Of a stretch of DNA of 64,000 nt, positions 22,096 to 64,000 are shown in pieces. Both the position numbers and the translations under genes were made by a program. Numbering within the stretch: position 1 is the first letter of the stretch; every line of letters starts with the position of its first letter. The notes beneath the pieces were generated by a model. The model saw only the letters and a list, made by a program, of their open reading frames with translations, was not told the origin of the DNA and searched no databases. Source of the DNA: Pseudomonadota bacterium (GTDB taxonomy: Bacteria > Myxococcota_A > Bradymonadia > UBA4248); assembly GCA_017441205.1 (NCBI GenBank), contig JAFRYG010000150.1:3931-67930 (forward strand). The letters run 5' to 3'.

Positions 22096-22099
22096 CTAA

Positions 22100-31507: not shown

Positions 31508-31920
31508 CTGTACTCCCTGTGCGTTCAACCAACGATTCAACCACCAGTTTTGCTGCAACTTTGTTACGCTCATCTTCATTGCATAATTCCGATGCATTCG
31601 GATACTTATTATAGCATAATTTATCCGAATTCCGCCATTTTTTCACTCACAGTTTAATCCCGTAGTCAGAAATAGCCATTTTCAAAACTGACATCCGCGC
31701 ATTGTCGCACAAAGACTGCTTTTTAAAGGGGGCAGTGGCCCCCTTCGCGGCTACCGCTGCGCGATACGCCGCTACCCCCACTGCGGGGACACCCCGCAAC
31801 GCCCCGAATCCAAACAAACCGCCTCAGTTCGCAAAGCGCCATTCACTACGAATAGCATTGTCTTCACAATACCTCATTCCTAACAACTCGCCTCAGTTCG
31901 CAAAGGGCCACCGCAGGGCA

Positions 31921-35800: not shown

Positions 35801-35870
35801 GAACATTTTGCTCATCGCATGCAGTCAGCAATATGCCCAAAATAATCAAATAAAGATGTCGACTTTTCAT
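32856..35870 (-). CDS. Secreted trypsin-like (S1) serine protease with 9 tandem about 50-aa cysteine repeats and a C-terminal hydrophobic helix + basic tail.
   Basis: Signal peptide MKSRHLYLIILGILLTAC. Catalytic triad blocks TAAHC, DIAL, GDSGGP. The repeats 'CGDNIVNN.E.CDGS.FKGNKT.C.QWDSKYSAGNVSCT..CEIDYS.C' are encoded by near-identical DNA units at about 33020..34340. The tail reads LPVLWLAVIGAGAVLRRKKQ. Confidence 0.85.
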   Translation of the reverse strand: MKSRHLYLIILGILLTACDEQNVPPSFGTNAQPILYGTLDTDKPEVVSLFVPDVRDTVYKTCDSDFVFLCAFLYGDNYTCATNDKKNYCLEKCSKPASTSFCRNNNGYVMTSHGICKAIEGGNVFIEDTSSANQLCAGGCNISQTDCDSGGTTDYLECRDEDAEQCSPLRCLMSPRLIYCLPTCSASGQTTKQCSEGHTHVFQCKNVNGTQMWAPLDESGYDCKSKCNDAGTDCDGFGPDLPPAEGTVPGDTYCTGTLIHPQWVLTAAHCVTDTESEFITESEDNEIAKVGIGYNENALIPYDTAGAEYFFYHPEYQSTDDFALNDIALIKLNKPIGSDVAAPVPPLPKWLAFAPDGLPEMMVTSGFGVDENGVSGKKMSISIPTTHYCGTYNPEAGETCDVGFVHIEGCHPNKEYCEEYGYYDATVPVSIPYHTMYAPYNDGGHCSGDSGGPTFYTVGGKRYVVGVTSYGDPPCRTFNVSTAVQDYYDWIISIAPEVAGQYKEICGNGYDDDGNDKIDCDDPACSCCGNGKLDNLENCDGSIFSNNKTKCADWDSMYSAGNVACTKSCEIDYSQCIVTANCGDHILGDGELCDGSVFKGNKTQCVQWDSKYSAGNVSCTSSCEIDYSKCTLAPYCGDNIVNNSELCDGLQIIDDKTQCAQWDSKYSAGNVSCTSSCEIDYSKCTLAPYCGDSIVNNDELCDGSNFKGNKTKCIHWDTKYSAGNVSCTNDCEIDYSECILAPHCGDNIVNNNESCDGSSFKGDRTQCIQWDSKYSAGNVSCTNDCRIDYSQCTLRPYCGDNVINNYELCDGAAFVENKTQCAQWDNKYTEGTVGCTKDCKIDFSQCIATPYCGDNIVNGDEQCDGSAFEGNRNHCRQWDSKYNSGLVKCTEDCKIDFSQCVLTPYCGDDIVNNGEPCDGNFFADDKIKCEQWGYKYSNGDVSCTKDCEIDYSNCYATVVHVDEHPDCTAVPLKSKHSKLPVLWLAVIGAGAVLRRKKQAVLRQN

Positions 35871-42336: not shown

Positions 42337-42404
42337 GATTTCTCCTTACTATTGTTCCACCGGAAGTGGGAGTCGTTTACTGGTTTGCAATATCTTACCA
42401 ATCC

Positions 42405-42460
42405 ATGCGGCGTATGAAATAGCCGCATGGCGAAGGCGTATTTGGCGCAGCCAAAAAGCC
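42405..42460. repeat. REP-like element pair (atgcggcGTATGAAATAGCcgcat, then ggcGTATTTGGCgcaGCCAAAAAGCc).
   Basis: Same core. The first hairpin is identical to the second hairpin at 36025..36046. Confidence 0.55.
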
Positions 42461-42658
42461 GAAGCCCCCAAATTAAAAGGCTCTGCTTAACGTATTTGAA
42501 TTTTCTGCTGATAAATGAAATTTTGGCTTGGAGTTCGAAGCGCTTGTTCTTGCCATCGATAGTGGGAGCAGTAGCCCCCACGCTGAAAATAGCGAGGGGG
42601 CCCATGAAGCGGACGAGGAAGAGGCTGAAAAGAGCCTCAATGGCTGTCCAAACGAATA

Positions 42659-45600: not shown

Positions 45601-45814
45601 TGCGGCTCAGTTTTTCAGCATCACAAATCTCACCCTCATCCAGCACGCCATTGCCGCAGAGAGCAGAGGGGTCCGAATTATCATCATCAGCACCAACAGA
45701 GCTGACGGATTCGTCAGAACATGCTGCCATCAAAACGCATGCAAGGATCGATGCCCATGCCGAACATTTTGATATGCGATGAGAATTTCCAAATAATAAG
45801 AACCGATCTTTCAT
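42659..45814 (-). CDS. Secreted lipoprotein with 3 Cys repeats, SH3b-like, a C39-like unit with Cys replaced by Gly, and a C-terminal about 500-aa domain that resembles a clan GH-A (TIM-barrel) glycoside hydrolase.
   Basis: Start trimmed to MKDRFLLFGN...ILACVLMAAC (GGAGG RBS). HGGGPTALANA...SRHFLTVYGYD. The C-terminal part has IHNEVNCSHW (NE acid/base-like) and WEIQLTENGI (TE.G nucleophile-like) blocks. The GH assignment is tentative. Confidence 0.75.
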   Translation of the reverse strand: MKDRFLLFGNSHRISKCSAWASILACVLMAACSDESVSSVGADDDNSDPSALCGNGVLDEGEICDAEKLSRSASCPKGKYLPPDAYFTCNDDCTLNTDACVAEASSDPCGNEALDEGEICDGDIFNKAASCPEGTYLPSDASLLCREDCTLDTSSCIPVEKEDPCGNGALDEEEICDGSLIRKSASCPENTHLAEGQTLTCNEDCTLNTSACVQDELPPDPPGPAEPAQGIVKHDTLTEIPIHRTPQYHYPNDTLKNEHGDAEKPQIVGHINKGDTVELHGIVGEKSFLGGSYLIDFDDGQYYIHSNNIELINDSPVDTIDYSSASTPNYYQNDAKWKDVKYRTTNIGVHGGGPTALANAIAILKDNKDITPETIAKKMDLYQDITSGEGTERAVVCPMIEREFDLECEYIDTSKGMNYGTDTSTTANDAATRSNTKQKIEEAFKNGWYVVALEGGAASYWTADNSRHFLTVYGYDKANDTLYVDDPVNVHYMQKGMEEFLNYTHSIFVITNKPADKKCTPKTCANYVGKCGDSLNDGCGGKLNCTCSDGKACVESVCGINKDVYPKRKSIKGIQPDAGDTQKMIDSNVHGVVFNMVWANMQPSKKTNCSEGEVKYKGYCYKTSYVDKIKKYTDAGVVVTAIVYGVPDWAKINCNSKYTAASIFCATKPEAADDYGRFAGFLAWYYNGIEHDGNKGGRVADFVIHNEVNCSHWYNMGCKDVSDCQLDPWVKNYAANWNKAYDYIRAEQKQAKVLISFDHMFAHGIDTWRHKSVEDFIQKLVPQLGTREWRLAFHSYPPDLTQPQFGANDWPIISFGNIGVLSGWLRQHYPDKPYAWEIQLTENGINGNPGNSSQLNLQNDYLCKAFKNVLGTPGIESFIYHRYQDVAHEGLNLGLVREDGKTPKPAWSTYVNANKPGAGKCGFELLPYVELARYLNSSTGNRWVTTRMPPDGFHHENSWKIYRDKPTFGDPIMLYECRFGDSKQHYQTKISTNVNCDGNFNMGPMGYAFKSKQKNTVALYQCKVGNTFFITDASNCENQIKDKLIGYVYRK

Positions 45815-45977
45815 TGTTTTAAACCTCCATACGTGATGTTTTGATGCATGCAAATCGCATTGTACTTTATGTTGAGAGTTTCTGAGTCAAAAGGTATGTT
45901 CCGTGTTTCTGTATGATGCAATCATGCCCCTCTGTATTGTACTTCGCCAATGCAGAGGTTCATATATCACTGTTCAT

Positions 45978-48533
45978 TCATTTCTTTTCGATAAGAGCCA
46001 TATCTCCGCATGTAGTCATAAAATCATTCGCATTTTGATGATACCTTCTCGACATGGGATCATCGACAAAGAAGTCCTCGTCATCATAACCATATATTAA
46101 TACATATTGACCATCATTGGTCCAGTATTTTCCAGTCTGAATTGCAATAACGTATCCGCCGTTCTTGATCGTATCCTTGACAGTATCAATGGAGTTTGGT
46201 TTAATCTCACAACTAATATTATAATATTTCTGTGATGCGTCGCAGGCAGAATCAATATTTGTCCCACCTTCGGCTTCTGCAGCACCAACTATTTTGAATT
46301 TCTCTGCAACTTCGTTCGGTTTAATATCCAAATTGAGGAGAGCCGTGATCGCATCTGCCCAGCAAGTGGGAGCGGATCCGGAATTATCCATATTACAGTT
46401 GGTACAGGAATACGGGGCATTTTTCCATTGGGCATCGGCTTGATAATAATTGATTGTTGCACCGGAAAAATAGGTCAAATCATTAATTGCGACGCCATTC
46501 GTTTCTACATCACTGGCCAGAATATAATATTTTTGATTGTTGTGGTAAATTTGATACCACTCCGGTGTCTTGGAAGATTTCTTCACTCTGCCAAGAATCG
46601 TGATTGGTTCATCTTTTTTTAAATAACCGGCGATCTGGCTCGGTTCAATACCGGTCAAGCCAAAATCATGATCCTCATTTAGTATCTTTGTGTTAGCAAA
46701 CTTGTTTTGTGGTGAACGTCTGTATGGGGTGTTATCCTTCTTGGCTCTGGGCCTCTCTACTTTTGTATTTTCTATAATATAAATCGTATGCAAATGGTTG
46801 AGGAATTCTTCCATTCCTGTCTGCATATAATGGAGATTGAGCGGATCATCAACATACAGCGTATCTTTATCTTTATCGTATCCATAAACGGTAAGGAAAT
46901 GATATTTATCCTCAGGGCTCCAGTAATCTCCGCCCTCGAGGGCAATGATGTACCCCCCCCTTTTAAAAGCGTTTTCCATCGCCTGCTTTGTTTCTGTGCG
47001 CGTTTTATCAGTCTTGCCGGCGTTCATACCGCCGGAAGTATCCTTCTTCACACAATTCAGCTGATATTCAGACATGATCATGGGACAGATGATACCCTTG
47101 TCCGTCCCAATATTGTCTTTGTACTGATAGAGGTCGAGCTTTTTGGCAACCACTGCAGGGGTAATACTTTTATCTTCTTTTAGAATGGCGAGTGCATTCG
47201 CCAACGATGTCGGACCGCCGCCATGTTCACCAATTGTCGATGTTCTGTATGGAGTATTACCCAAACTCTTGTCATTCTGATAGTAATTAGGTGTGGAAGC
47301 TGACGAATAATCAATGACAGGGACCGGGATATTATTCACGCGTTCGATGTTGCTGCTATGAATATAATACTCGCCGTCACTAAACTGAATTCGATAATAA
47401 CTGCCAAGATATGAATTCTCTCCCATGACTCCAAGAAGATCGACGATTTCACCCGTCTTAAGATTGCCGACGATCTGCTTTGGTTCCCCTTTATGATCAT
47501 TTTTCAGAGTATCATTCGGGTAATGATACTGAGGCGTCCTGTGGATGGGTATTTCTTTGAGCGTGGCGTGAACGACTTTTCCTTTTGGGGGTTCACAGGC
47601 ACTCGTATCCAGGGTGCAATTTGCGTTGCATGCCAAAGACTTACCCTCCGGAAGAGCCGTATTTTTCGGGCATGCAGCGGTTTTCTGAATGAGGCTGCCA
47701 TCACAGCTTTCTCCCTCGTCCAGGGCATTATTGCCGCATTTTTCAGGGATTTGAGCAGTCACACAAGCGGCGGTATTCAATGTACAATCCGCATTGCAGC
47801 TAAGGCTGGCATCCGATGGCAATTGCATACCTTTGGGACAAACCGCAGCATCACTCAGGATTTTACCATCGCAGATTTCTCCATCGTCCAGGGCATTATT
47901 GCCGCATTTTTCAGGGATTTGGGTAGTCACACAAGCGGCGGTATTCAATGTACAATTTGCATTGCAGCTCAGGCGCATCCCAGAAGGCAACAGAGTCCCC
48001 GCAGGGCAGGATGCATCATAGCTCAATTTTTCCGCATCACATATCTCGCCATCATCCAGCACACCATTGCCGCACAAAGACTCAGCTACAGCCTGAACGC
48101 ACGCATCGGTATTCAATGTACAATCCGCATTGCAGCTCAGAGCGGCATCAGGCGGCAGCCTCTCTCCTTCCGGACACGAAGCCCCATAGCTCATTTTATC
48201 AGCATCACATATCTCACCATCATCCAGCACACCATTTCCACATAGGATCGGTGCTTCATCCGGAACGCAGGCAGAAGTATTCAAGGTACAATTTGCATTG
48301 CAGCGCAGTCTGGCCCCCTTCGGCAGATGTTCTCCCGCTGGGCAGGATGCTTCATAAGCCAATATTTCAGCATCACACACCTCAGTATCATCCAACGCCC
48401 CATTGCCGCAGATTGGATCGATGACCGGATCAAGCGAACATGCCGCCATCCCGGTAAATGCAATCAAGGAAATCCCTCTGAGTTCCCCTGAAATACGATG
48501 CATTTTTTCGTGAAACGACGGCGAATGTTTCAT
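45978..48533 (-). CDS. Secreted lipoprotein with 5 Cys repeats and two SH3b + C39-like units, both with non-canonical active-site positions.
   Basis: AAGGA RBS. Unit 1 reads EHGGGPTSLANAL...KYHFLTVYGYD (Cys to Gly). Unit 2 reads NSGSAPTCWADAITAL...DGQYVLIYGYD (Cys shifted, His to Gln). The architecture is collinear with 39808..42336. Confidence 0.8.
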   Translation of the reverse strand: MKHSPSFHEKMHRISGELRGISLIAFTGMAACSLDPVIDPICGNGALDDTEVCDAEILAYEASCPAGEHLPKGARLRCNANCTLNTSACVPDEAPILCGNGVLDDGEICDADKMSYGASCPEGERLPPDAALSCNADCTLNTDACVQAVAESLCGNGVLDDGEICDAEKLSYDASCPAGTLLPSGMRLSCNANCTLNTAACVTTQIPEKCGNNALDDGEICDGKILSDAAVCPKGMQLPSDASLSCNADCTLNTAACVTAQIPEKCGNNALDEGESCDGSLIQKTAACPKNTALPEGKSLACNANCTLDTSACEPPKGKVVHATLKEIPIHRTPQYHYPNDTLKNDHKGEPKQIVGNLKTGEIVDLLGVMGENSYLGSYYRIQFSDGEYYIHSSNIERVNNIPVPVIDYSSASTPNYYQNDKSLGNTPYRTSTIGEHGGGPTSLANALAILKEDKSITPAVVAKKLDLYQYKDNIGTDKGIICPMIMSEYQLNCVKKDTSGGMNAGKTDKTRTETKQAMENAFKRGGYIIALEGGDYWSPEDKYHFLTVYGYDKDKDTLYVDDPLNLHYMQTGMEEFLNHLHTIYIIENTKVERPRAKKDNTPYRRSPQNKFANTKILNEDHDFGLTGIEPSQIAGYLKKDEPITILGRVKKSSKTPEWYQIYHNNQKYYILASDVETNGVAINDLTYFSGATINYYQADAQWKNAPYSCTNCNMDNSGSAPTCWADAITALLNLDIKPNEVAEKFKIVGAAEAEGGTNIDSACDASQKYYNISCEIKPNSIDTVKDTIKNGGYVIAIQTGKYWTNDGQYVLIYGYDDEDFFVDDPMSRRYHQNANDFMTTCGDMALIEKK

Positions 48534-52009: not shown

Positions 52010-55000
52010 ATGAAATCACAAAGACTGTTGTATTCGATGTGTATTTTTGCGGCCATGGGCTTGTATTCATGCAGTGATGATTCAGGCAGCACATCTTCGG
52101 AGGAGAAAGCCATCTGCGGCAATGGAATTCTGGAAGAAGATGAACTATGCGATGACGGCAATACGGAGGCTGGTGACGGTTGTTCGGACGACTGCACGGT
52201 TGAAGCCGGGTGGACCTGCGACAAGCCGGGAATTCCCTGCACAGAAGATGGGCCGGATAAAAAAGCAGTCTGCGGGGATGGCAAAATAACGGGTGATGAA
52301 TCCTGTGATGACGGGAACACCAAAGCTGGCGATGGTTGTTCGGGAGACTGTGCTGTAGAGGATGGCTGGCGCTGCCCAACGCCAGGTGAGCCATGCATCG
52401 AACGTATCGAGGAAGAGGATGCCGTTTGCGGCGACGGATTACTGGATGGCAGCGAGATCTGCGACGATGGTAATATCGAGTCCGGTGACGGCTGTTCGAG
52501 TGAATGCCGCATCGAAGATGGCTGGAACTGTGAAACGCCCGGTGCTGCCTGTGAAAAAACCAATATCGCCGAAGCTGTCTGCGGGGACGGCATTGTTGCT
52601 GATTATGAAGAATGCGACGACGGCAATGCCGAGGCAGATGACGGCTGTTCCTCAAATTGTGCATTAGAGACTGGCTGGCAATGTGAAACACCGGGACAAC
52701 CCTGTGTAAAAGATGTGGTGATCGACGCCGTCTGCGGCGACGGTCAAAAGGCTGACAACGAATCCTGCGACGATGGCAATCTGGATGCCGAGGATGGCTG
52801 TGCGCCCGATTGCACCATTGAGGAAGGATGGACCTGCGATAAACCCGGTGAACCTTGCGTACAAGTTTCTACCGTTCCGGAAGATGTCTGTGGGGATGGT
52901 GAGATCACTGGCGATGAAAAATGCGATGACGGCAATGCAAAGGCAGGCGATGGATGTTCAGACAACTGCACTATCGAAGCTGGCTGGGTTTGCGAAAATC
53001 CCGGCACGCCATGCACAAAGCAGCCCGTAGTTCCCGGAGATGTTTGTGGAGACGGCAAAATTTCCGGCAATGAGAAATGCGATGATGGCAACGCCAAAGA
53101 CGGCGATGGATGTTCTGCCAAGTGCGCCATCGAAAAGGGTTGGACCTGTGCCGAGGCCGGCAAGGCATGTTCGACAGTCTGTGGGGACGGTATCGTTGCA
53201 GGCAAGGAAAAATGTGACGACGGCAATACCAAGGCCGATGACGGTTGTTCTGCCAAGTGTGCCATTGAGGAATCCTACGTATGCAAGACTGCCGGCAAGC
53301 CCTGTACACCCGAATTTGATAACAAAACGAGCATTAAAATTCTTGGCGTGGGCAACAGCCTGATGCGGGACTCGACCGTTTATCTGTGCGATATTCTCGT
53401 CAATATGGGATATAAAAATGTCACGGTTGGCGTGTTATATACCGGCGGCAAGTCGATCAACTATCATGCAGAGAATATGCGCAAGAAAGGGTCGCCCGGG
53501 ACTTACTTTCTCAGTACATGCAAAGATTGTGATACCAAAAGCAAATGTACCGAAACGACCCCCAAAAAGACATATCTGGAAGCCATTAAGTCCGCAAAGT
53601 GGGACTATTTCATCATGATGACCTCTCCTTCCGGCGTAATCGATCTTTACAACAAAGATATTGATTATGTCATCGATACGGTCAAAAAGAATTCACCCAA
53701 AGAACCGGAGTTCGGCTGGGCGCTGACATGGGCATACCAAACGGGCGTTTCGCATTACCAAATGGCATTCCATGGATACAATCAAATTAAAATGTACGAA
53801 GCGGCCGTCATGTCGGTCAAAACCAAGATAGAACCAAGAAAAGATATCTCATTTGTCATCCCTGCGGGAACGGCCATCCAAAACCTCAGAAACGGCATTT
53901 TTGCGAATAATATGAATCGGGATGGCTATCACATGTCCTACAACAATGGTCGGTTTGCGGCCAATCTGATGTGGGCCAAACAAATCACCAAACGACCGGT
54001 CGGCAAAGTCACCTACAAACCGAATAAATATTCCTATACCGACAGGCAAATAAAAGCCCTCAAGGAAGCCGTCGTCAACGCCTATAAAACCCCTTATGCG
54101 GTCACGCGTCCCAGCAAAGGCGTCAACGGAACCTACGTCAAGCCAAACAAGGATCTCCAGAAAATCTTTTCCGATGCAGGCCACAATCTCAAGGATTATG
54201 TCGAAATCCCCGTCGGAGTAACGACAAAAGCCCTGTACAATTCGACGAAACAGGATGCCGATGTATGCAATCTCACGTCTGTATTAATCGACGGTACGAA
54301 ATATTGTTATGCCACACTGGTAAGTGCAGAGACGGGAAGCAAGAGTGCCGATCTTAAGAAACATGCAGCTTCGCGCATCTTTACGCGCTATGAGATCCCC
54401 AATGGCTCATTTATCGTCATCAAATCCGGGTATGAATATCGCGCAGATGGCTGGATTTCCTTCGACAAGGCAACCGCAGCAAAGAACCGGCCTGCTGTCG
54501 TGGATAAACAAATCACCGAGGTGACGGACAAATGGTGGGGGAAATATCAATACCGTGCATTTACTCTGTCCAAAAAAGGAGAACCCAAACTCAGCGACGA
54601 AGAGATGGAAAGCCTAGAAAAGGTCATGTCCATCTTTGTTCCGATTCACCATGACAATGCCGACGATGCTCTCGTCAAGGCGGGTTATGATTTGAGCAAG
54701 TACAAGAAGCTCGATCTGAGCCTGACGCACAAGGCTTATTGGAATTCGAACACAGTAAGCGACTTGCCGACAGGATTGACGAGACCGGACGCAAATAACA
54801 AATTTCCCACCAAACTCTTTGGCGGCGATAAAAACAGTACAGCAGTCAAGTTTGCAACCACGCGCATCTTTACCAAATCAGCAATTCCCAATGGCAGTCT
54901 GATTGTCCTCGTCAAGGGTTATCGTTATACCCCCGACGGTTGGAAGGCCCTTGATGTTTCAAACAAAGGTACAGATCTTCGTCCCAAACCCGTCGTTGCC

Positions 55001-55159
55001 AAGGATGCCAACTCTATCACCGTCGTTGATGATAAGTGGTGGGGTCAGTTCAAATATCGGGCGTTCAACATTACCAAGGCCGAACCGGTTGAACTTACGC
55101 CGCTGGAACAGTATCAGATGGGCGAGGTTTTTGCGATCTATACGCCAGTTTCCAAATAA
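52010..55159 (+). CDS. Secreted protein with about 10 DUF4215/Myxococcus cysteine-rich repeats and a C-terminal SGNH-like hydrolase-fold domain (GNSL block) followed by a duplicated about 100-aa module.
   Basis: GAGGAG RBS. Signal peptide MKSQRLLYSMCIFAAMGLYSC. The repeats are CGDG.I.G.E.CDDGN..AGDGCS..C..E.GW.C. The C-terminal region starts ILGVGNSLMRDS (GDSL-like block I with Asn), which resembles DUF4886/SGNH-fold proteins. The duplicated tail is 'RIFT..IPNGS.IV...GY.Y..DGW...KWWG..YRAF'. Confidence 0.75.
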   Translation: MKSQRLLYSMCIFAAMGLYSCSDDSGSTSSEEKAICGNGILEEDELCDDGNTEAGDGCSDDCTVEAGWTCDKPGIPCTEDGPDKKAVCGDGKITGDESCDDGNTKAGDGCSGDCAVEDGWRCPTPGEPCIERIEEEDAVCGDGLLDGSEICDDGNIESGDGCSSECRIEDGWNCETPGAACEKTNIAEAVCGDGIVADYEECDDGNAEADDGCSSNCALETGWQCETPGQPCVKDVVIDAVCGDGQKADNESCDDGNLDAEDGCAPDCTIEEGWTCDKPGEPCVQVSTVPEDVCGDGEITGDEKCDDGNAKAGDGCSDNCTIEAGWVCENPGTPCTKQPVVPGDVCGDGKISGNEKCDDGNAKDGDGCSAKCAIEKGWTCAEAGKACSTVCGDGIVAGKEKCDDGNTKADDGCSAKCAIEESYVCKTAGKPCTPEFDNKTSIKILGVGNSLMRDSTVYLCDILVNMGYKNVTVGVLYTGGKSINYHAENMRKKGSPGTYFLSTCKDCDTKSKCTETTPKKTYLEAIKSAKWDYFIMMTSPSGVIDLYNKDIDYVIDTVKKNSPKEPEFGWALTWAYQTGVSHYQMAFHGYNQIKMYEAAVMSVKTKIEPRKDISFVIPAGTAIQNLRNGIFANNMNRDGYHMSYNNGRFAANLMWAKQITKRPVGKVTYKPNKYSYTDRQIKALKEAVVNAYKTPYAVTRPSKGVNGTYVKPNKDLQKIFSDAGHNLKDYVEIPVGVTTKALYNSTKQDADVCNLTSVLIDGTKYCYATLVSAETGSKSADLKKHAASRIFTRYEIPNGSFIVIKSGYEYRADGWISFDKATAAKNRPAVVDKQITEVTDKWWGKYQYRAFTLSKKGEPKLSDEEMESLEKVMSIFVPIHHDNADDALVKAGYDLSKYKKLDLSLTHKAYWNSNTVSDLPTGLTRPDANNKFPTKLFGGDKNSTAVKFATTRIFTKSAIPNGSLIVLVKGYRYTPDGWKALDVSNKGTDLRPKPVVAKDANSITVVDDKWWGQFKYRAFNITKAEPVELTPLEQYQMGEVFAIYTPVSK

Positions 55160-55391: not shown

Positions 55392-57764
55392 ATGAAGAGG
55401 TATTTCAGATTCATCCTATGGACGGCAGCTGCATCGGCTGCGGGAATTGCAGGAGTTTCGGCTACAGCTGCAGCACAGGATTTGGCCTGGCCGGCAGGAC
55501 AGAATTGTACCCATATTTCGACATACTATGGCTATCGTGCATCACATTTTCACAGCGGCATTGATATTGCGTGCGGCGGCGACATCGATATTCTCGCGGC
55601 AGCAGACGGCAAAGTCGTTTCCGAAACGAATTCCCAGGGGCAGTGCCAATATTCCAAATCCGCCGGCACATGCGTTTCGTGCAAGCAATCCATGGGCAAC
55701 TCCCTGACCATCGATCACGGCAATGGCTATCAGACCATCTACATGCATCTCAAGAAGAAGCTGGTAAAAAAAGGCGATGAGGTTTCCTGCGGCGATGTCA
55801 TCGCGAAGATGGGAACGACGGGATGCTCGACCGGCCAGCACCTGCATTTTACGGTCAAGATCAACGGCAAAACGGACGATCCCTTCAATCACGTCAAAAA
55901 AGCCAACTACACGTGTCCCGCAGGCAGCGGCGGTTCCCTCGGTATGGTGTCGATTTTTGAGCCGCAAAATACCGATATCGACGGCGACGGCGTCGCCGAA
56001 ATCTGCATCCGCGGCTCAAAGGGCCTGCAATGCATCTTCCCCAAAACGGACATTACGACCAAAAACATTATCTTCGACACCTTCAGTGACGAAAAGGGCT
56101 GGAACGACGTTTCGAACTACGCCACGATTCGTTTTGCCGATGTCAATGGCGACGACAAATCGGATGTCTGTGCCCGTTCGAATTCCGCCTATCAGTGCTG
56201 GCTGTCGAACGGCACGGGCTTTACCGACGGCGGCAGCGTCAGCATGAGCGACAAAGATGGCTACAACGACGTCAAATACTATGCGACGACAAAACTCGCC
56301 GATATCAATGCCGACGGCAAATTCGATTTCTGCGCGCGGTTCAAGGATCACTTCAATTGTTACCTGTCGACCGGCGACGGATTTTCGGAAACCCCGATTC
56401 ACTTCGACGACATGGGCGACGCACAGGGCTGGGGCAAGCCGCAGTATTACATGACGATCCGCATGGCCGACATCAATGGCGACGGCATGGCGGATGTTTG
56501 CGGGCGCAGCAGCAGCGGCGTGCTCTGCTGGCCTTCGCATGGCGACAGCTTCGGCGATGCCATTACGGGCCCCGCCTGGACGGACGCCAACTGGGAAAAA
56601 GCCCCGTATTATTCGACGATCCGCATGCCCGATATCAATGGCGACCACAAAGCCGATCTCTGTGCACGCGACAACAGCGGCGTCGTGTGCCATCTTTCGA
56701 CCGACGATGGCTTTGGCGACGAGATTCGCGGCCCCGAATGGTCTGACAGCAATGGCTGGAAGGATCCGGAGCATTACGCAACGCTCCAGTTCGGCGATAT
56801 CAACGGCGACGGCATGGACGATATCTGCGCCCGCGCCGATGCCGGCCTTATCTGCCACCTGTCCAATGGCAATGGATTTGAAGCGGACAGCTTTACCATC
56901 GATGAATTCGGCGACGCCAAAGGCGGCAACAAACCTGCCATCTACCGAACCATCCACATCGGCGACATCGATGGTGACGGCAAAATGGACATCTGCGGGC
57001 GCAATACAGAAACCGCAGTCTGCTTCAAGTTCAACGGTGAAGGCTTCGACCGCATCGAAGGTGCGCCGCTTTCGGATTCCAGCGGCTGGAATGGCAACGA
57101 ATATGCTTCGACCTATCGCCTTGGCGGTCCCAAGCCCAAAGATTGCTCGTTCCTGGCCGAAATCTGTGACGAAAAGGACAACAACTGCAACGGCGAAGTC
57201 GACGAAGGCAACGTATGCTGCGAACCGTCCGAAGAAATCTGCGACGGTGCCGACAACGACTGCGACGGCCAAATCGACGAAGATGGCGTCTGCTGCGTGC
57301 CTGAGGTCTGTGACGGCTTGGACAATGACTGCGACGGTGAAGTCGACGAAGACAACATCTGCTGCGAACCGACCGAAGAAATCTGTGATCGCATCGACAA
57401 TGACTGCGACGGCCAAATCGATGAAGACAACGTTTGCTGCGAACCTTCGGAAGAAGTCTGCGACGGCGAAGACAACGACTGCGACGGCCAAATCGACGAA
57501 GACGATGTCTGCAATACCGAACCCGACGAAAAACAGGATGATAGCGACGAAAAAGGCGACAATAACGACGATTACAAAAATAACGGTAACGACACAGATG
57601 AAGAGCCCGATTCGGTTGAACCCAACGAGCGTTCCATCCATGTGTCGGACGATTGCTCGAGCCAGCCGCAGGGAACGTCTTCGCATCCGATGCCCTGGCT
57701 GCTTGGATTTGGCGGTCTTTTGGGCATGATTCTGTATCGCCGTCGTCGCGAGAATTCGAAATGA
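55392..57764 (+). CDS. Secreted M23 (LytM-type) metallopeptidase, followed by about 9 FG-GAP/VCBS-like repeats, 5 MopE-like 'CDG.DNDCDG.IDED' repeats, an acidic linker and a C-terminal sorting-signal-like tail.
   Basis: GGAGG RBS. Signal peptide MKRYFRFILWTAAASAAGIAGVSATAAAQD. M23 motifs HSGIDIA...DG.V...GNSLTIDHGNGYQTIYMHL...GTTGCSTGQHLHF. Repeats Y.TIRFADVNGDGK.DVCAR. Tail CSSQPQGTSSHPMPWLLGFGGLLGMILYRRRRENSK. Confidence 0.85.
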   Translation: MKRYFRFILWTAAASAAGIAGVSATAAAQDLAWPAGQNCTHISTYYGYRASHFHSGIDIACGGDIDILAAADGKVVSETNSQGQCQYSKSAGTCVSCKQSMGNSLTIDHGNGYQTIYMHLKKKLVKKGDEVSCGDVIAKMGTTGCSTGQHLHFTVKINGKTDDPFNHVKKANYTCPAGSGGSLGMVSIFEPQNTDIDGDGVAEICIRGSKGLQCIFPKTDITTKNIIFDTFSDEKGWNDVSNYATIRFADVNGDDKSDVCARSNSAYQCWLSNGTGFTDGGSVSMSDKDGYNDVKYYATTKLADINADGKFDFCARFKDHFNCYLSTGDGFSETPIHFDDMGDAQGWGKPQYYMTIRMADINGDGMADVCGRSSSGVLCWPSHGDSFGDAITGPAWTDANWEKAPYYSTIRMPDINGDHKADLCARDNSGVVCHLSTDDGFGDEIRGPEWSDSNGWKDPEHYATLQFGDINGDGMDDICARADAGLICHLSNGNGFEADSFTIDEFGDAKGGNKPAIYRTIHIGDIDGDGKMDICGRNTETAVCFKFNGEGFDRIEGAPLSDSSGWNGNEYASTYRLGGPKPKDCSFLAEICDEKDNNCNGEVDEGNVCCEPSEEICDGADNDCDGQIDEDGVCCVPEVCDGLDNDCDGEVDEDNICCEPTEEICDRIDNDCDGQIDEDNVCCEPSEEVCDGEDNDCDGQIDEDDVCNTEPDEKQDDSDEKGDNNDDYKNNGNDTDEEPDSVEPNERSIHVSDDCSSQPQGTSSHPMPWLLGFGGLLGMILYRRRRENSK

Positions 57765-57863
57765 CGGTTGTTTGAGTGGCCCGTGCTATTGCGCCGAAGG
57801 CGCAATACGCACCGGGTGCGCGGCTATGAGGGCTGCGCCCGCATACGCCGCCCAAACCAAAGA

Positions 57864-57930
57864 GCCGCGTATTTGCCATCGGCAAATAGCGGCGAGGCAA
57901 GCCGTAGTGGCGAACGCCACAAGGCGCGCC
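57864..57930. repeat. REP-like element (gccGCGTATTTGCCatcGGCAAATAGCggc) plus a second hairpin (gtggcgaacgccac).
   Basis: Near-identical to the copy at 60664..60733. It lies inside the tandem duplication unit. Confidence 0.6.
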
Positions 57931-57998
57931 CACAAAATCAGGTTATCACAGAGAAAAATTATTGCAGTTGTGATTCAAACGACATTACGGAGGAAATC

Positions 57999-60368
57999 AT
58001 GCGCAAACATACCAGAATGATTCTTTTGTACGTATTTGCCATGTATGCAGGGATGATGGCTGCGAATGATGGCGCGCAGGCCCAGGATATGGCATGGCCC
58101 GTAGCAACCTGCACAAGCATTTCAGATGACTATGGCCCGAGGGATGGAACTACGCACTCGGGCATTGATATCTCGTGCGCTGGCAACCATGACGTCCTTG
58201 CCGCAGCCGATGGTGAAGTCATCGCTGAAACGACTGATAACACCCAATGCACTTATTCAAATGGACATTGTTATGGTTGCGTTAATGAGAGGGGCAACTC
58301 GCTGACAATCAAACACGACAATGGCTGGCACACGGTCTCCATGCATCTGGAGAAGAAATATGTTTCCACAGGGGACAGGGTAAAATGCGGACAACCGATC
58401 GGAAAAATGGGCACGACCGGCTGTTCGACGGGGCAGCATCTGCATTTTACGACCTACGAAACGAGCTACAGCAAGCATGATTCCCCCTGGAATCACGTGG
58501 AAAAGGGAAACATGACATGCCCGTCCAGCGGCTGGATTGCAGGCCTCGACCTGGTGACGACATACGACCCGCAGAACACGGACATCGACGGTGACGGCGT
58601 CGCCGAAATCTGTATCCGGGGCAATGCCGGCATATACTGTACGTTCCCCAAAACCGACATCACCGCCAAATCGGTAATCTTCGACAAGCTGACCGACAAG
58701 GACGGATGGGATGACAGCTCCAATTACGCGACGATTCGTTTTGCCGACGTCAACGGCGACGGCAAGGCCGATGTCTGTGCGCGCAGTGACACCAAACTGA
58801 GCTGCTGGATTTCGAACGGAAGCGGTTTCGAAACGGAATGGGGGAGCGTACCCATGGCCGATGCGGATGGTTATAAGGCCCCGCAATACTATGCCACCAT
58901 TAAATTTGCCGATATCAACGGCGATGCGAAAGACGATTTCTGTGCTCGCTTTAAAGATGGCTTTAAATGCTATCTTTCGTCCGAAAATGGTTTTTCCGAA
59001 ACCAGCGTCGATCTCAAGGCAATGTCGGATGCCGATGGCTGGGATAATGCGTCGAGGTATGCGACGATCCGCATGGCGGATATCAACGGCGATGGCATGG
59101 CAGACGCCTGCGGACTCAGCAAATCGGGCTGGCAGTGCTGGCCGTCGAAAGGCGATTCCTTCGGCGAACCCATTCAAGGTCCTGCATGGAGCGATGATAC
59201 ATGGAGCGAGGCCATGTATTTTGCGACGATCCGCATGCCGGATATCAATGGCGACCACAAAGCAGACGTATGTGCGCGCGATGCCAAAGGAATTGTCTGC
59301 CACCTTTCGACCGGCGAGGGCTGGGGAGAGGCCATTCGCGGCCCGGAACTCTCTGATGAAAAAGGCTGGGGAAAACCGGAATATTACATGACGCTCCAGT
59401 TCGGCGATCTCAACAAAGACGGCAAGGATGACCTCTGTGCGCGTGGAGCCGACGAGTTTATTTGCTATCTTTCGGATGGCGAAAGCTTTAAACGCGACGA
59501 AAAATACGTCCTCACCGAGTTCAGCAATGCCAAAGGCGGCAACGCCCCCGGCGTGTACCGAACCATTCACCTCGGGGATGTCAATGGCGACGGCATCATG
59601 GATGTCTGCGGCCGCAACCCAAGCAAAGCGGTATGTTTCGTCTATGGCGGCGATACACCAAAACGCCTTGAAGGCCCAAATCTCAATGATTCCTATGGCT
59701 GGGATGAAAATCCATACGGTTCGACGTTCCGTTTTGGCGGTCCCAAGCCAAAAGACTGCAGCTTTGTCGAAGAAATCTGCGACGAAAAGGACAACAACTG
59801 CAACGGCGAAATCGACGAAGGCGGCGTCTGCTGCGTGCCGGAAGTCTGCGACCAGAAGGACAACGACTGCGACGGCGAAGTCGACGAAGACAACGTCTGC
59901 TGCGAACCGTCCGATGAAATCTGTGACGGCAAAGACAATGACTGCGACGGTTCAGTCGACGAAGACAACGTTTGCTGCGTGCCTGAAATCTGCGACCAGA
60001 AGGACAACGACTGCGACGGAGAAATCGACGAAGACAACGTTTGCTGCGAACCGTCCGAAGAAATCTGTGATCAGAAGGACAACGACTGCGACGGTGAAGT
60101 TGACGAAGACGATGTCTGCAAAAAGCCGGAAGAAGAGAAACCCGATAAGCCCGATAAGCCCGATAAGCCTGAAACGCCGGATACTCCGGATAAGCCAGAT
60201 ACACCCGATACGCCGGATGAATCCGCCGACAACACGCCAGCTTCCTCTGCAGAAGGCTGCTCGAGCCAGCCGCAGGGAACGTCTTCGCATCCGATGCCCT
60301 GGCTGCTTGGATTCGGCGGTCTTTTGGGCATGATTCTGTATCGCCGTCGCCGCGAGAGTTCGAAATAA
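57999..60368 (+). CDS. Tandem paralog of the previous gene, with the same M23 peptidase + FG-GAP-like + MopE-like + Pro/Asp/Lys linker + C-terminal sorting-signal-like tail architecture.
   Basis: Start trimmed to MRKHTRMILLYVFAMYAGMMAANDGAQAQD (GGAGG RBS). The same domain order. The last about 110 nt of the CDS and about 40 nt downstream are nearly identical to 57655..57800. Confidence 0.85.
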   Translation: MRKHTRMILLYVFAMYAGMMAANDGAQAQDMAWPVATCTSISDDYGPRDGTTHSGIDISCAGNHDVLAAADGEVIAETTDNTQCTYSNGHCYGCVNERGNSLTIKHDNGWHTVSMHLEKKYVSTGDRVKCGQPIGKMGTTGCSTGQHLHFTTYETSYSKHDSPWNHVEKGNMTCPSSGWIAGLDLVTTYDPQNTDIDGDGVAEICIRGNAGIYCTFPKTDITAKSVIFDKLTDKDGWDDSSNYATIRFADVNGDGKADVCARSDTKLSCWISNGSGFETEWGSVPMADADGYKAPQYYATIKFADINGDAKDDFCARFKDGFKCYLSSENGFSETSVDLKAMSDADGWDNASRYATIRMADINGDGMADACGLSKSGWQCWPSKGDSFGEPIQGPAWSDDTWSEAMYFATIRMPDINGDHKADVCARDAKGIVCHLSTGEGWGEAIRGPELSDEKGWGKPEYYMTLQFGDLNKDGKDDLCARGADEFICYLSDGESFKRDEKYVLTEFSNAKGGNAPGVYRTIHLGDVNGDGIMDVCGRNPSKAVCFVYGGDTPKRLEGPNLNDSYGWDENPYGSTFRFGGPKPKDCSFVEEICDEKDNNCNGEIDEGGVCCVPEVCDQKDNDCDGEVDEDNVCCEPSDEICDGKDNDCDGSVDEDNVCCVPEICDQKDNDCDGEIDEDNVCCEPSEEICDQKDNDCDGEVDEDDVCKKPEEEKPDKPDKPDKPETPDTPDKPDTPDTPDESADNTPASSAEGCSSQPQGTSSHPMPWLLGFGGLLGMILYRRRRESSK

Positions 60369-60663
60369 CGGTTGTTTGGGTGGCCCGTGCTATTCGTAAC
60401 CTTTTTACAATCCGAGTAGCTGTTTTCGGAATTCATCATAATGATTACGCCGCCATGGACGGCGGCGAGAGGCGAGGGAGGCATGTCCATGGATGGACAT
60501 TCGACCCGTAACTGCGATCGCCATAAGAAGCGTGCGGGGGTCGTAGTGGGTGTTCACAATCGAACACCCCCTACCGCGTAAGCGTACAAAAAAAGCATCT
60601 GCGCATCAATGCGCAAATAAACAATTCAGCAATAGGTATAGCCAAATCAATAATAAACAATAA

Positions 60664-60733
60664 AGCCGCGTATTTGCCTTCGGCAAATAGCGGCGAGGCA
60701 AGCCGTAGTGGCCAGCAGCCACAAGGCGCGCCC
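60664..60733. repeat. REP-like element (gccGCGTATTTGCCttcGGCAAATAGCggc) plus a second hairpin (gtggccagcagccac).
   Basis: Copy of 57864..57930. The second hairpin keeps the GTGGC/GCCAC stem with a different loop. Confidence 0.6.
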
Positions 60734-61041
60734 CAAAACAGTCAAACTGCAATCGGGAGACCTCACCGTGCCTCAGTATGGAAAGGGGGACTTGAAAAAC
60801 TGACTGTGCATACACATAAGACCAAAACACGATACGTAGATAGCGAATTAATATATTGATACAAACGATACAAAACAACAATAAATAATTATACATTTTT
60901 CATCATTTTATGCTTGCCCACCCAACATAATTTCCTGATAAGGATGTTGGGTGTATTTTTAAACAAAAGTCAATTTTTTAACACAATACATCCTTATCAA
61001 TCATTCCCTTTTGAGGGCCATCGTTTTTTGTGGGGATTAAT

Positions 61042-64000
61042 ATGACGTTGAAACGCAATCGTAAGTTTTTCTTAATTCTAGCAACATCAATCATAGCGGT
61101 TGGCTGCAGTTCATCGTCCCATCACGACGATGATAACACCCCCGAAGGCCCGTCAAACAGCAGTATTCAGATTACATCCCTGCGCGGGTCACCATCCTGG
61201 GGAGACGCGCCCCTTTTGACGGAAGTGAGATGGGAGATTTCCAATCCGTCTCAGGAACTCCTGACATGTCGCCTGGACATGAATGGAGACGGACAGGCCG
61301 AGTACACCATAGAATCGTGCCCGGTCACCGGCAGTCAGGCACATATGTTCGAGATCCCTGGCGCTCATGTTGTGAATCTGACGGTTGAAGGCGAAGACGG
61401 CAAAGTTGTTTCGTCCGAAACACATGTATATGCCAATCATCTCGAATGGAATGATCGTACGAAGTTTTCGGACGAAATGGCCGGCGTTCATGAAATTGAG
61501 GTTACGAGCAATTCCCTTGTAATTACGGTTGATTCCGAAGGGGAACAGCCCACATTTGAAGAAGGGCAGGTACTCGTGAGTACACAGGGCGGCGGCTATT
61601 TGAGAAAAGTCGTTGGTGTGCATTACGACGGCGATCAGATTATTCTTGAAACGGAACCCGCCACGCTTGAGGATGCCATTTCGACCGGCAATTTTGGTGC
61701 CGAGGATGTCGTTGCGATTTCGGATGTTCAGTGCATGTCGAACTGCGAAACGTTTGTCGCGAAGCGTTCGTTAGATCGCCGCCATTTGCGCGACAATTAT
61801 ACGGATGCGCTCGAATTCGATGTTCATCCGCCTGCCTCCGAGAACATGCAGCTGCACAATGCCTCGCTTCGCATCGGCGACCATCTCGCCTATTCGATGG
61901 CGATGAGCAATTCTGCGATGTCCGACATGACCATGGTGTGGTCGAATTATTTTGAATTTCGTGCGCACATTGCGAGTACGGCTGCCGACAGCATGCAGCT
62001 CACGCTCCCGGTACTGCATATCAATTCAGCGGGTGTGGGCTTGTTCCCGATTGCATTCGATCTGAGCGGTAGTTTAAAAATCGTTTCGAATGGCATTTTC
62101 GAGGGCGATATCAGCATCAACTACGAAGTGGTCACGACGATGGTCTATGCCAACGGGCAATTCACGACGACACAGACGCTGGCCAGTGAACCCGAAATTA
62201 CCCTGAGCAACATTGATACCACAGCAGATATGCCGCTCAAGGTACTGGCGGCACCAACGCAGACGATGTCAATTTATGGCTTGAGCGGCCCACAGATCGA
62301 TCCGTCGGTCAAAACATTAATTTATAATGTTCAGCCAAATACGTCCCAGGTCGAGGCTGCATGTACCCAGGCGACCGCGAATGGAACTTCGTCCAGCAGT
62401 GGAACGCTTGGATTTACTGCGAATGCGTTCAATGTCAGTGGTTCGGGAACGCTCGAGGATGTACGATTTTTCGACAATTGTATTTATCTGCAGTCAGGTC
62501 CCCCTTCCGCCGAAACACCTGCTCCCGGTACGACTCCCGCGCCGGATCCCGCCGTGACGCAGCCGGACTGCACCGCCGGAGAAATCAAGTGCGAAGGTCA
62601 GCAGCTCTACCAATGCGTGAACGGTGTCTGGATCGATTCGATGGTGTGTGCTGAAGATGCCATCTGCGACAGTTTTGAGGGCAAGTGCATCACACCCGAA
62701 TGTGACGAGGGTTCCGTACAGTGTGAAGGCGATGTCCTCAAGCAATGTACTCAGAATGCCTGGCAAATGATCGATTGTGCGGCCGCCGATATGATTTGTG
62801 TTCCCGGCCGTGGGGCATGTGAACCCAAAGTCTGCGAAGACGGCGTCAATACGTGCGAAGGCACGCGCCTCGTATCGTGTCAGGGTAATGTCAAATCCTA
62901 TACGTATTGCGGTGAATTGCCCGCAACCGAAGAGGCAGTTTATGGCTTTTTGTGCAGTGACACTGCACATGCCTGCGCACCCAGACTGTGCCTCGACAAC
63001 AGCACACGGTGCAATAACAACGCCATTGAGATTTGTTTGAACAATGCCTGGACTGTACTTGAAGGCTGCGAAGCCAAAACCCAAAAATGTACCGAAGGCG
63101 AATCGGGTCCTGAATGCCGCAAGCTCGTTTGTCAACCCGGCGAAACGATATGCCAGGACGATGGCAAGGGGCATATTCTGCTCCATTCATGTGATGCCGA
63201 TGGATCGCAGTTCGCAGCCGGCGTACCCTGCCCCGATGCCGATGGCAAAGCCCAGATTTGCAGGGACAACAAATGCGTCGAACAGATATGTGTCGAAGAT
63301 GATGTTCGATGTACCCAGGATAGCCTGAGTGTCGAAGTTTGCCACGATAATGCATGGAAAAAGACGAATTGCAATGTCCTCGAAACGGACGACCGTATTT
63401 GTCTTGAAGAGCCCGATTCGGCGACACCAGCCCCAACTTGCTATGATCGCATCTGCGAACCGGATACAACCAAGTGTACAGGTGTCGATAATCGCCAGGT
63501 TTCAGTTTGTGAACTGGGCATTCGATGGTCTGATCCCACCGATTGTGCCGATGGCATGATCTGCATGGACAAGGACGGTGTCGCCGACTGCAGAACCCCC
63601 GAATGCATCCCCGCGAGCTTTACGCCGTATTGCCAGAGCACGCCCGAAGCCTGGGTGACATGCAATCCCGAAACCTTTACCCGCGTCACCAACCTCTGTG
63701 CGCCCGAAGAACACTGCGAAGCACTCGCCAATGGCTGTGTGCTGTACTGCGGCAATAATATCATCGATACCGCAGACGAGGTTTGCGATGGAACTGCGGC
63801 TTTTGCCGATACCTGTGCAAGCGTTCTTGGACGCGCCAATGCTCTGGGCAAACTCGCCTGCAGTGATACATGTACTTTCGTCACAACAGGATGCTACTGG
63901 TGCGGCGATGGAATGCTGAACGAAGGCGAAGAATGCGACACCACGATTCCCGAAGGTACGGTTTGTCCGGATGGTACGTCTGGAACGCCGATCTGCAGCA
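61042..64000 (+). CDS. Large secreted lipoprotein, partial (runs off the right window edge). It has an N-terminal about 500-aa non-repetitive region followed by EGF-like Cys repeats (C.EG...C.G..L..C..NAW...C...C).
   Basis: ATG at 61042, giving MTLKRNRKFFLILATSIIAVGCSSSS (lipobox). The frame stays open to position 64000, which explains its absence from the ORF track. The Cys repeats share the pattern of 28700..31507. Confidence 0.7.
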   Translation, partial: MTLKRNRKFFLILATSIIAVGCSSSSHHDDDNTPEGPSNSSIQITSLRGSPSWGDAPLLTEVRWEISNPSQELLTCRLDMNGDGQAEYTIESCPVTGSQAHMFEIPGAHVVNLTVEGEDGKVVSSETHVYANHLEWNDRTKFSDEMAGVHEIEVTSNSLVITVDSEGEQPTFEEGQVLVSTQGGGYLRKVVGVHYDGDQIILETEPATLEDAISTGNFGAEDVVAISDVQCMSNCETFVAKRSLDRRHLRDNYTDALEFDVHPPASENMQLHNASLRIGDHLAYSMAMSNSAMSDMTMVWSNYFEFRAHIASTAADSMQLTLPVLHINSAGVGLFPIAFDLSGSLKIVSNGIFEGDISINYEVVTTMVYANGQFTTTQTLASEPEITLSNIDTTADMPLKVLAAPTQTMSIYGLSGPQIDPSVKTLIYNVQPNTSQVEAACTQATANGTSSSSGTLGFTANAFNVSGSGTLEDVRFFDNCIYLQSGPPSAETPAPGTTPAPDPAVTQPDCTAGEIKCEGQQLYQCVNGVWIDSMVCAEDAICDSFEGKCITPECDEGSVQCEGDVLKQCTQNAWQMIDCAAADMICVPGRGACEPKVCEDGVNTCEGTRLVSCQGNVKSYTYCGELPATEEAVYGFLCSDTAHACAPRLCLDNSTRCNNNAIEICLNNAWTVLEGCEAKTQKCTEGESGPECRKLVCQPGETICQDDGKGHILLHSCDADGSQFAAGVPCPDADGKAQICRDNKCVEQICVEDDVRCTQDSLSVEVCHDNAWKKTNCNVLETDDRICLEEPDSATPAPTCYDRICEPDTTKCTGVDNRQVSVCELGIRWSDPTDCADGMICMDKDGVADCRTPECIPASFTPYCQSTPEAWVTCNPETFTRVTNLCAPEEHCEALANGCVLYCGNNIIDTADEVCDGTAAFADTCASVLGRANALGKLACSDTCTFVTTGCYWCGDGMLNEGEECDTTIPEGTVCPDGTSGTPICS

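Follow-up and report, generated by a model that had tools for sequence, protein, structure and literature searches.

In bacteria, paralogues can evolve in concert through partial gene conversion, as tufA/tufB exemplify. Among sorting signals, the MYXO-CTERM type has its prototype in TraA of Myxococcus xanthus, which is sorted by the myxosortase MrtX together with the type II secretion system (PMC11980579), and MYXO-CTERM proteins and myxosortases also occur in Bradymonadales (bioRxiv 10.1101/2023.06.07.544157). Repetitive extragenic palindromic (REP) elements are imperfect palindromes, 20-40 bp long, that bear a GTAG or CGTC tag. GTAG-tagged palindromes are the hallmark of REPs, which are mobilised by RAYT enzymes (PMC3733652, PMC2817692) and usually reach copy numbers above 100, dispersed over the genome (PMC2817692). 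Here we analyse a 64-kb stretch of DNA (64,000 nt of contig JAFRYG010000150.1; hereafter the window) in which two adjacent genes, g1 and g2, encode M23 peptidases with a MYXO-CTERM-like tail and are followed by REP-like hairpins. We are fairly confident in the account that we arrive at, namely that these are old lysin paralogues whose 3' ends were recently homogenised by gene conversion.

Gene g1 (55392..57764, + strand, 790 aa) and its tandem paralogue g2 (57999..60368, + strand, 789 aa) lie head to tail on the same strand, each with a GGAGG-type ribosome-binding site upstream. Open reading frame (ORF) calls, translation, Pfam and an exact protein matches identify g1 as GenBank MBQ9817810.1 and g2 as MBQ9817811.1; the two are neighbouring proteins on one 68-kb metagenome-assembled genome (MAG) contig, and are named there 'peptidoglycan DD-metalloendopeptidase family protein' and 'VCBS repeat-containing protein'. 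Both have the same domain order, running from a putative Sec signal peptide (hydrophobic N-termini ending AAAQ/D and AQAQ/D, read by eye from the g1 and g2 sequences) through an M23 domain, a seven-blade FG-GAP propeller, five MopE repeats and a disordered linker to the MYXO-CTERM-like tail. The first-pass annotation had described a tandem duplication with identical architecture, and this is borne out by ORFs at the coordinates above and by the same three Pfam families in both proteins: Peptidase_M23 (E 2.9e-26 in g1, 1.9e-22 in g2; PF01551, 91.9 and 79.7 bits, gathering cut-off 28.7), FG-GAP_3 (E 2.3e-20 and 1.4e-23) and Cu-binding_MopE (E 9.4e-21 and 4.7e-17; PF11617, 74.2 and 62.3 bits, gathering cut-off 27). 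The M23 peptide blocks that it quoted, and its distinction between an acidic and a Pro/Asp/Lys linker, likewise match the translations. An AlphaFold2 model built on an alignment of 38 homologous sequences has an overall predicted local distance difference test score (pLDDT) of 82.7, with high confidence in the M23 domain and propeller, moderate confidence in the MopE region, disorder at residues 710-767 and a helix at 768-789. A simple promoter and terminator scan returned no more sites than were found in shuffled sequence.

A 137-nt tract at the 3' ends of the two genes (copy 1, 57654..57790, + strand; copy 2, 60258..60394, + strand) differs at only 5 positions, an identity of 96.4% with a longest perfect run of 56 nt (repeat finder, BLAST), and nucleotide identity over the whole codon-anchored alignment of g1 and g2 is 67%. 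The tract is made up of 111 nt from the end of the coding sequence and 26 nt of flank, and takes in Cys755, the spacer, the transmembrane helix, an RRRR cluster and the stop codon. Its 5' edge is the first base of the Cys755 codon, with 8 mismatches in the 12 nt just upstream, and its 3' edge lies 26 nt past the stop codon, where 11 mismatches follow in a row. The observed segment score of 112 compares with scores that never exceeded 50 in 5000 permutations of the match/mismatch columns. A second repeat (57854-57937 versus 60655-60738, 91% over 85 columns) follows after a gap of 63 nt at g1 and 260 nt at g2. Near-identity had originally been claimed for about 110 coding nt and about 40 nt of flank; the coding part stands, and the flanking part resolves into 26 nt and a separate block of about 85 nt. 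No other copy of the tail was found in the window, at either the DNA or the protein level.

Outside the tail, synonymous divergence (dS) between g1 and g2 is 1.40 and nonsynonymous divergence (dN) 0.33; in the tail (36 codons) the corresponding Nei-Gojobori estimates are 0.08 and 0.012. The gene bodies have thus diverged to synonymous saturation, g1 and g2 are old tandem paralogues, and the 137-nt tract was made near-identical recently, and it seems more than once, by non-allelic homologous recombination (gene conversion) between them. The first-pass annotation had offered recent gene conversion or selection on the tail as causes. The former is carried by the contrast in dS between tail and body, by identity that extends beyond the stop codon and by variants swapped between the paralogues among strains. 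The latter, in the form of strong purifying selection at the protein or at the nucleotide or RNA level since an old duplication and without recombination, can point to the tail as a functional module, to a tract whose 5' edge falls exactly at the Cys codon that opens this module, and to a 3' flank that is structured. It meets the difficulty, however, that synonymous sites are nearly identical too, and that orthologues from different species agree less well in the tail than in the body: identities are 72% (body) and 60% (tail) for g1 and P0004, 66% and 41% for g1 and P0003, and 69% and 41% for P0004 and P0003, as opposed to 61.5% and 97% for g1 and g2. Single-nucleotide variants and end variants swapped between paralogues among strains add to this difficulty, and the g1 flank, which has no Rfam match, has been replaced by unrelated DNA in sister strains and is therefore not under strong constraint. 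We consider selection of this kind very unlikely as the cause of the identity, and selection on the tail is dropped in favour of gene conversion.

The same divergence estimates bear on the idea that g2 is a very recent duplicate of g1, with a body evolving fast under positive selection and a tail too young to have diverged. Here g1 is indeed the closest database relative of g2 (61%), and the database search found no separate g2 orthologues outside the species cluster; but the body is saturated at synonymous sites (dS 1.4), which positive selection at the protein level does not produce, and the strain comparisons show ongoing exchange. A neighbour-joining tree of the bodies also sets g2 outside the group formed by g1 and the orthologues, with close distances (61% versus 57-59%), a tree on which we do not rely. 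Recent duplication strikes us as extremely unlikely, and we retain gene conversion between old paralogues. The single-copy orthologue loci P0004, P0003 and P0005 lie in a genomic context different from that of the window and therefore give no date for the duplication.

Related contigs from independent assemblies show both that the pair is real and that its 3' ends are exchanged. Both genes are present in L040 (SPAdes) at 97-98% identity to the window; L041 (MEGAHIT) holds g1 and 549 aa of g2 at 98.7-99.1% identity; L044 (GenBank whole-genome shotgun entry JAEEGL013402342.1, from a metagenome-contig scan) holds g1, the hairpin element and the g2 leader, with the g1 3' arrangement as in the window; and L046, a JGI metagenome contig, holds the 3' two-thirds of g2 and its flank at 95.7% identity. 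The tandem pair, recurring in full in L040 and in part in L041 and L044, is therefore not an assembly artefact, which had been named at first pass as what would undo the duplication. An artefactual origin of the duplication or of its identical 3' ends, by misassembly of a repeat (collapsed or expanded) or by a chimeric join, could appeal to the metagenomic assembly of the contig, to the breakdown of synteny with L040 and L046 close to the g2 end, and to a further contig, L047 (MEGAHIT k87), that jumps from the g1 body through the tail to the region downstream of g2 without g2 itself. Against this, the same pair with diverged bodies stands in L040, L041 extends into g2 and L044 reaches the g1-g2 spacer, and the two tails differ at 5 sites and have unique flanks on both sides, so that these are two distinct loci and not one collapsed locus; we judge an artefact most unlikely.

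Among these contigs, variants are found on different members of the pair. At a ggatt[T/C] site the window has T in g1 and C in g2, and in L040 the two bases have changed places. In the window, the 15 nt past the g1 stop codon and the hairpin element match the g2 flank, and this g1 flank differs from the orthologous g1 flank of L040 and L041. An end consisting of RRRRA, the stop codon and a 130-nt insert is found on g2 in L040; L047 has it on a g1 body, and the switch from one to the other falls within the tail. L047 (positions 1-6713; ENA ERZ1029115, k87_27531573) carries a single hybrid gene whose g1 body is 99.3% identical to L040 g1 and whose end is of the g2 type (RRRRA*), followed directly by OMP_b-brl and ATP synthase c genes, which lie downstream of g2, and g2 is missing. 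L047 arose either by natural unequal crossover or as a chimera of the k87 assembly, and either way the shared tail was the substrate.

The region past the stop codons is occupied by hairpins. A cluster 3' of g1 (57786..57930, no strand assigned) comprises four GC-rich hairpins with a fold z-score of -4.3, namely H1 (57786-57807), H2 (57820-57851), H3 (57864-57893) and H4 (57897-57930), the last of which has the form CGTAGTGGC-loop-GCCACAAG with a GTAG head beside the palindrome. Downstream of g2, between the converted tract and a copy of H3 and H4 (60665..60732, no strand assigned), lies a 260-nt mosaic (60395-60654) in place of the H1 3' arm and the whole of H2. Within this mosaic lies element C (60536..60571, no strand assigned), of the form GTAGTGGGTGTTC-loop-GAACACCCCCTAC, with an internal GTAG in its 5' arm and a CTAC end. 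The element C region (window 60513-60577 versus L042 10584-10647, from another species) is 86% conserved, the orthologous proteins being only about 72% identical, and in L042 the stem bears one compensatory change from T-A to C-G. Related hairpin copies occur in L040, L044, L045 and L046; copies differ mainly in their loops, and also at one loop-proximal H3 stem position and at H2 positions (window, L040), and H3 of L046 carries a paired compensatory stem change from TATTTGCC/GGCAAATA to TATCTGC/GCAGATA. The hairpins are maintained by compensatory change.

Their arrangement varies from strain to strain. A complete element follows the stop codon of g1 in the window and L044 and of g2 in L046; after L040 g2 comes a 130-nt insert and then a complete element; after window g2 come only the 5' arm of H1, the 260-nt mosaic and then H3 and H4; and after g1 in L040 and L041 there is no element, an unrelated repeat taking its place. 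From this strain-variable arrangement it follows that the hairpin element is part of a fast-changing 3' region shared by recent exchange, and no relic of the original duplication. What the first-pass annotation called a co-duplicated REP element is thus correct as to REP-like hairpins downstream of both genes and incorrect as to their co-duplication, since they are absent after g1 in sister strains and interrupted after window g2. The repeat that directly follows and overlaps the g1 stop in L040 and L041, where the window has hairpins, belongs to a second intergenic family of aattcgaaatgcgt-like units, with members at window 21995-22148 and at L040 11626-11819 and 17551-17708. As for copy number, the hairpins occur twice in the window, once in L040 and twice in L045, always 3' of family genes, and a 31-nt hairpin core turned up in a single further metagenome contig, which belongs to the same species. 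Neither a RAYT nor a Y1 transposase was seen among the window ORFs scanned with Pfam, and Rfam returned nothing relevant over the whole window at the gathering score or over 57600-61200 at E<=1; no tRNAs were found.

These hairpins raise the question of whether a mobile 3' cassette, made up of tail and REP-like hairpins, was inserted separately at each gene end, for instance by a REP-associated transposase. The GTAG-headed hairpins do resemble RAYT-mobilised REPs (PMC3733652, PMC2817692), another species has the same hairpin pair turned the other way round, and the 3' element content is strain-variable for both genes from at or near the stop codon. Neither this tail nor this hairpin pair, however, is on any other gene in the window or in related contigs, the window ORFs scanned contain no Y1-transposase domain, and the tail is homologous in both position and sequence to the tails of the single-copy orthologues P0002 and P0004 and was therefore inherited, not imported. 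Such insertion is improbable in our estimation, and gene conversion between resident tails remains the preferred explanation. That the hairpins promote this conversion is a hypothesis. In its fullest form, which we think unlikely, the MYXO-CTERM tail and the adjoining GTAG-headed hairpins would make up a recombination-prone 3' cassette. The hairpins, or a REP nuclease, would induce breaks shortly after the stop codon, and the paralogue next door would serve as template for their repair. In tandem arrays of surface lytic enzymes the sorting signal, and in some cases the linker as well, would thereby be overwritten again and again, so that all members stay matched to one myxosortase while their catalytic and targeting parts diversify. 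The corresponding pattern is present in two independent lineages, those of the window species and of L045.

L045 comes from a different species and its genes have NAGPA heads. Two adjacent paralogues there, with 66% protein identity, share a perfect 337-nt tract, which starts inside the last MopE repeat and runs on through linker and tail into 86 nt of flank; this flank contains the same hairpin pair as H3 and H4, in opposite orientation relative to the gene. Other converted pairs were sought by a k-mer screen, and we conclude that tail homogenisation is recurrent, though not universal, in this family. The L045 array (1504-11079) is made up of four successive genes that combine NAGPA heads, MopE repeats and MYXO-CTERM-like tails. 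A propeller is present in the first two only, and the perfect 3' tract is likewise confined to this pair; no such identical tract is shared by genes c and d. Tracts of 96-100% identity were also observed at the 5' ends of genes in an unrelated, tandemly repeated two-gene cassette of Corallococcus and Myxococcus isolates (L026 5547-5689 versus 8655-8797; L023 8143-8281 versus 11054-11192; non-MAG assemblies), which suggests that tandem arrays of Myxococcota commonly undergo local conversion.

The homogenised coding sequence corresponds to a tail of the layout C755-SSQPQGTSSHPMP-WLLGFGGLLGMILY-RRRR-ENSK at the C-terminus, in which AlphaFold2 predicts the helix at 768-789 and Cys755 is conserved in at least 90% of the family. 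The C-terminal sorting tail proposed at first pass can be specified as MYXO-CTERM in type by this tripartite layout of Cys signature, transmembrane helix and Arg cluster. TIGR03901 (NCBIfam) matches at E<=0.01 in 18 of the 38 homologues, the best at 5e-8, and JGI names P0030, a g2 fragment with 95% identity, 'MYXO-CTERM domain-containing protein'. By analogy with M. xanthus TraA, the tail Cys would be lipidated, the myxosortase (MrtX) would cut off the transmembrane helix and the type II secretion system would then place the enzyme on the cell surface, where the peptidoglycan of prey or of adjacent cells could be its substrate. Judged by its domains, the product of each gene is probably a secreted peptidoglycan endopeptidase that is tethered to the cell surface.

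The catalytic head lies at 55488..55928 (+ strand) in g1 and at 58095-58535 in g2, and was delimited by Pfam, by matches to M23 structures in the PDB and by the invariant columns of the 38-sequence alignment. All M23 motifs of g1 are intact, namely HxxxD (H54, D58), H119 and HxH (H150, H152); H54, D58, H119 and H150 are invariant among the 38 homologues and H152 is conserved in at least 90% of them, and both g1 and g2 contain HSGID and HLH. In M23 proteins of the inactive EnvC/NlpD type, zinc and catalytic residues are lost. Residue by residue, then, the M23 domains of g1 and g2 are catalytically intact, and they match the solved M23 enzymes ShyA, LytM and lysostaphin in sequence and fold. Between HxxxD and the core sheet lies a Cys-rich insert, QCxY...GxCxxC (window 55650-55700, g1 residues ~84-100), which is also present in g2; its Cys residues are conserved across the family, with C97 nearly invariant.

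The seven-blade FG-GAP/VCBS β-propeller (g1, 55962..57128, + strand; g2, 58569-59741) was recognised by its blade period of 162-168 nt, by AlphaFold2 (pLDDT about 95 over residues 190-575) and by Foldseek, and PF13517 matches six stretches in each protein. The top Foldseek matches are the fungal N-acetylglucosamine (GlcNAc) lectins PVL of Psathyrella velutina (2bwr) and AAL2 of Agrocybe aegerita (4tqj), with a best E of 6.5e-16, template-modelling scores of 0.77-0.80 and a root-mean-square deviation of about 3.1 Å, followed by the Tc-toxin TcB propeller and then by M23 enzymes. AAL2 binds GlcNAc in inter-blade pockets with Asn/Asp and a G-G-W-x4-H segment (PMC4483166). A G-W-x4-[H/Y] motif stands between blades in 4-5 of the 7 blades here, as compared with AAL2 at the level of the sequence motif, and its inter-blade Gly and Trp are conserved across the 38-sequence alignment. 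Fold and motif together suggest that the propeller may be a multivalent module for binding cell-wall glycans.

Five MopE-type Cys/Asp repeats (CDxxDNDCDGxxDE) follow at 57144..57512 (+ strand; Pfam and sequence) in g1 and at 59757-60119 in g2; they would form a stalk, and metal binding by them is putative. This region is 80-85% identical between g1 and g2 at the nucleotide level, with a dS of 0.76 (1.4 elsewhere), which may reflect either an older conversion or codon constraint in a repeated motif. The linkers that connect the repeats to the tail, acidic, of low complexity and predicted to be disordered in g1 (57513..57653, + strand) and made of PDKPDTPD-type 9-nt repeats in g2 (60120-60257, + strand), are not alignable with each other.

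Among the candidates scored in a database search with g1, 671 proteins matched at E<=1e-10, mostly from Myxococcota-type MAGs and also from cultured Sandaracinus and Hyalangium, the nearest relatives coming from Myxococcales and Bradymonadia MAGs. The protein relatives and the MYXO-CTERM tag point to a relative of Myxococcota or Bradymonadales as the probable source, an uncultured bacterium listed in GenBank as 'Proteobacteria bacterium'. In a genome-collection scan the best match was a paralogue pair with different heads from 'Myxococcales bacterium UBA4248' (52% identity). NCBI already uses names of the kind 'VCBS repeat domain-containing M23 family metallopeptidase'. Given these homologues and existing names, the fusion of M23, propeller and MopE repeats is not the unusual combination it had been taken for: it is found in hundreds of proteins and has been named by both NCBI and JGI. 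A literature search on FG-GAP, M23 and myxobacteria returned no papers. The chassis of propeller and MYXO-CTERM, with or without MopE, also bears GH25 lysozyme, PF09992 NAGPA-type phosphodiester glycosidase, SpoIID, VanY, amidase_2, GH43, and S8 or trypsin protease heads in addition to M23. Such head modularity suggests a common delivery or targeting scaffold for wall-degrading enzymes. We are looking at a large uncharacterised modular family, with a lectin-like propeller, a Cys-rich stalk, a MYXO-CTERM anchor and interchangeable wall-degrading heads, that plausibly contributes to the contact-dependent lytic surface of predatory Myxococcota and might yield targeted bacteriolysins.

Several points weigh against this account or parts of it. 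The g1-specific sites 57746 T and 57754 A remain inside the tract, and because they persist the conversion history is mosaic and compatible with more than one direction and number of events. L047 could be a k87 assembly chimera and not a real recombinant, and in the tandem pair of L001 tail and body are equally diverged, both being about 70% identical. With respect to sorting, TIGR03901 scores 15.6 bits in g1 and 17.7 bits in g2 and does not reach its curated cut-off of 20, although the authors of that model state that true members below the cut-off exist and need manual review (bioRxiv 10.1101/2023.06.07.544157); in addition, no myxosortase or type II secretion genes were seen within the window. 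With respect to function, the lectin role draws on fold similarity at ~21% identity and motif resemblance, and the wall that is cut could be the prey's or the cell's own.

The surroundings of the pair are dense in large secreted proteins (window 28700-55159). They include an SH3_3 protein (28700-31597), a trypsin-domain protein (32856-35870), a DUF285 protein (36088-38604), three Peptidase_C39_2 genes with SH3_3 or DUF5722 (39808-48533) and a lipoprotein with eight DUF4215/myxo_disulf repeats and DUF4886 (52010-55159). A neighbourhood rich in secreted hydrolases agrees with a putative role against the walls of other cells and proves nothing. Further upstream, window 9679-21726 (- strand) contains a 4015-aa ORF whose C-terminal half is full of TPR repeats. 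On the other side of the pair, synteny stops near the g2 end, the alignment reaching 60354 with L040 and 60394 with L046; beyond g2 these two contigs have an OMP beta-barrel gene and then the ATP synthase operon, and in the window (60395-64000) the hairpin mosaic of 260 nt gives way to an AT-rich spacer (42% GC) and then to a lipoprotein-like ORF that occupies 61039 to the end of the window (more than 985 aa) and is without a match in Pfam.

Compared with lysostaphin, LytM with SH3b and Vibrio ShyA, the g1 and g2 proteins share the M23 fold with its full zinc and catalytic set, and likewise join a catalytic head to a non-catalytic domain, for which wall binding is plausible here. They differ in that the candidate targeting domain is a seven-blade FG-GAP propeller, followed by MopE repeats and a putative lipid-anchor signal, and in the Cys-rich insert of the M23 domain. 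The propeller itself resembles PVL and AAL2 in its seven FG-GAP/integrin-type blades of about 55 residues and its recurring inter-blade G-W-x4-aromatic motif, and departs from them in overall sequence (about 21% identity), apparently in the spacing of the Asn/Asp residues that in AAL2 bind O3/O4, and in a conserved Cys pair per blade. MYXO-CTERM proteins such as TraA and the protease MepA (PMC11980579) have in common with g1 and g2 an N-terminal signal peptide, a Cys signature with hydrophobic helix and Arg cluster preceded by a disordered linker, and hydrolase cargo; the g1 and g2 tails, in turn, have a single Cys in a D/G-C-S-S context where MYXO-CTERM has GCGC-like signatures, and a long 10-residue spacer.

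As in REP elements and bacterial interspersed mosaic elements (BIMEs), the hairpins described here are imperfect GC-rich palindromes (22-36 nt, two of them with GTAG) that cluster on the 3' side of genes, are found in one or the other orientation depending on the species, vary between strains and have compensated stems. They differ from REP/BIME in number and distribution, with two copies in 64 kb that both follow g1 or g2, and in that no RAYT was seen in the ORFs scanned. In the literature searched we found no description of conversion limited to a sorting signal and abutting REP-like hairpins in two lineages. In itself, g1/g2 is a clear but rather ordinary instance of gene conversion, in a large family that has already been annotated, and it overturns nothing; its value is as a well-documented natural example of segmental concerted evolution at a C-terminal sorting signal, in at least two lineages. 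As in concerted evolution of the tufA/tufB type, a segment of the paralogues is kept near-identical through recombination while orthologues diverge; unlike tufA/tufB, the tract is short (137-337 nt) and limited to the 3' end, that is, to the sorting signal and flank, of tandem paralogues that are otherwise saturated.

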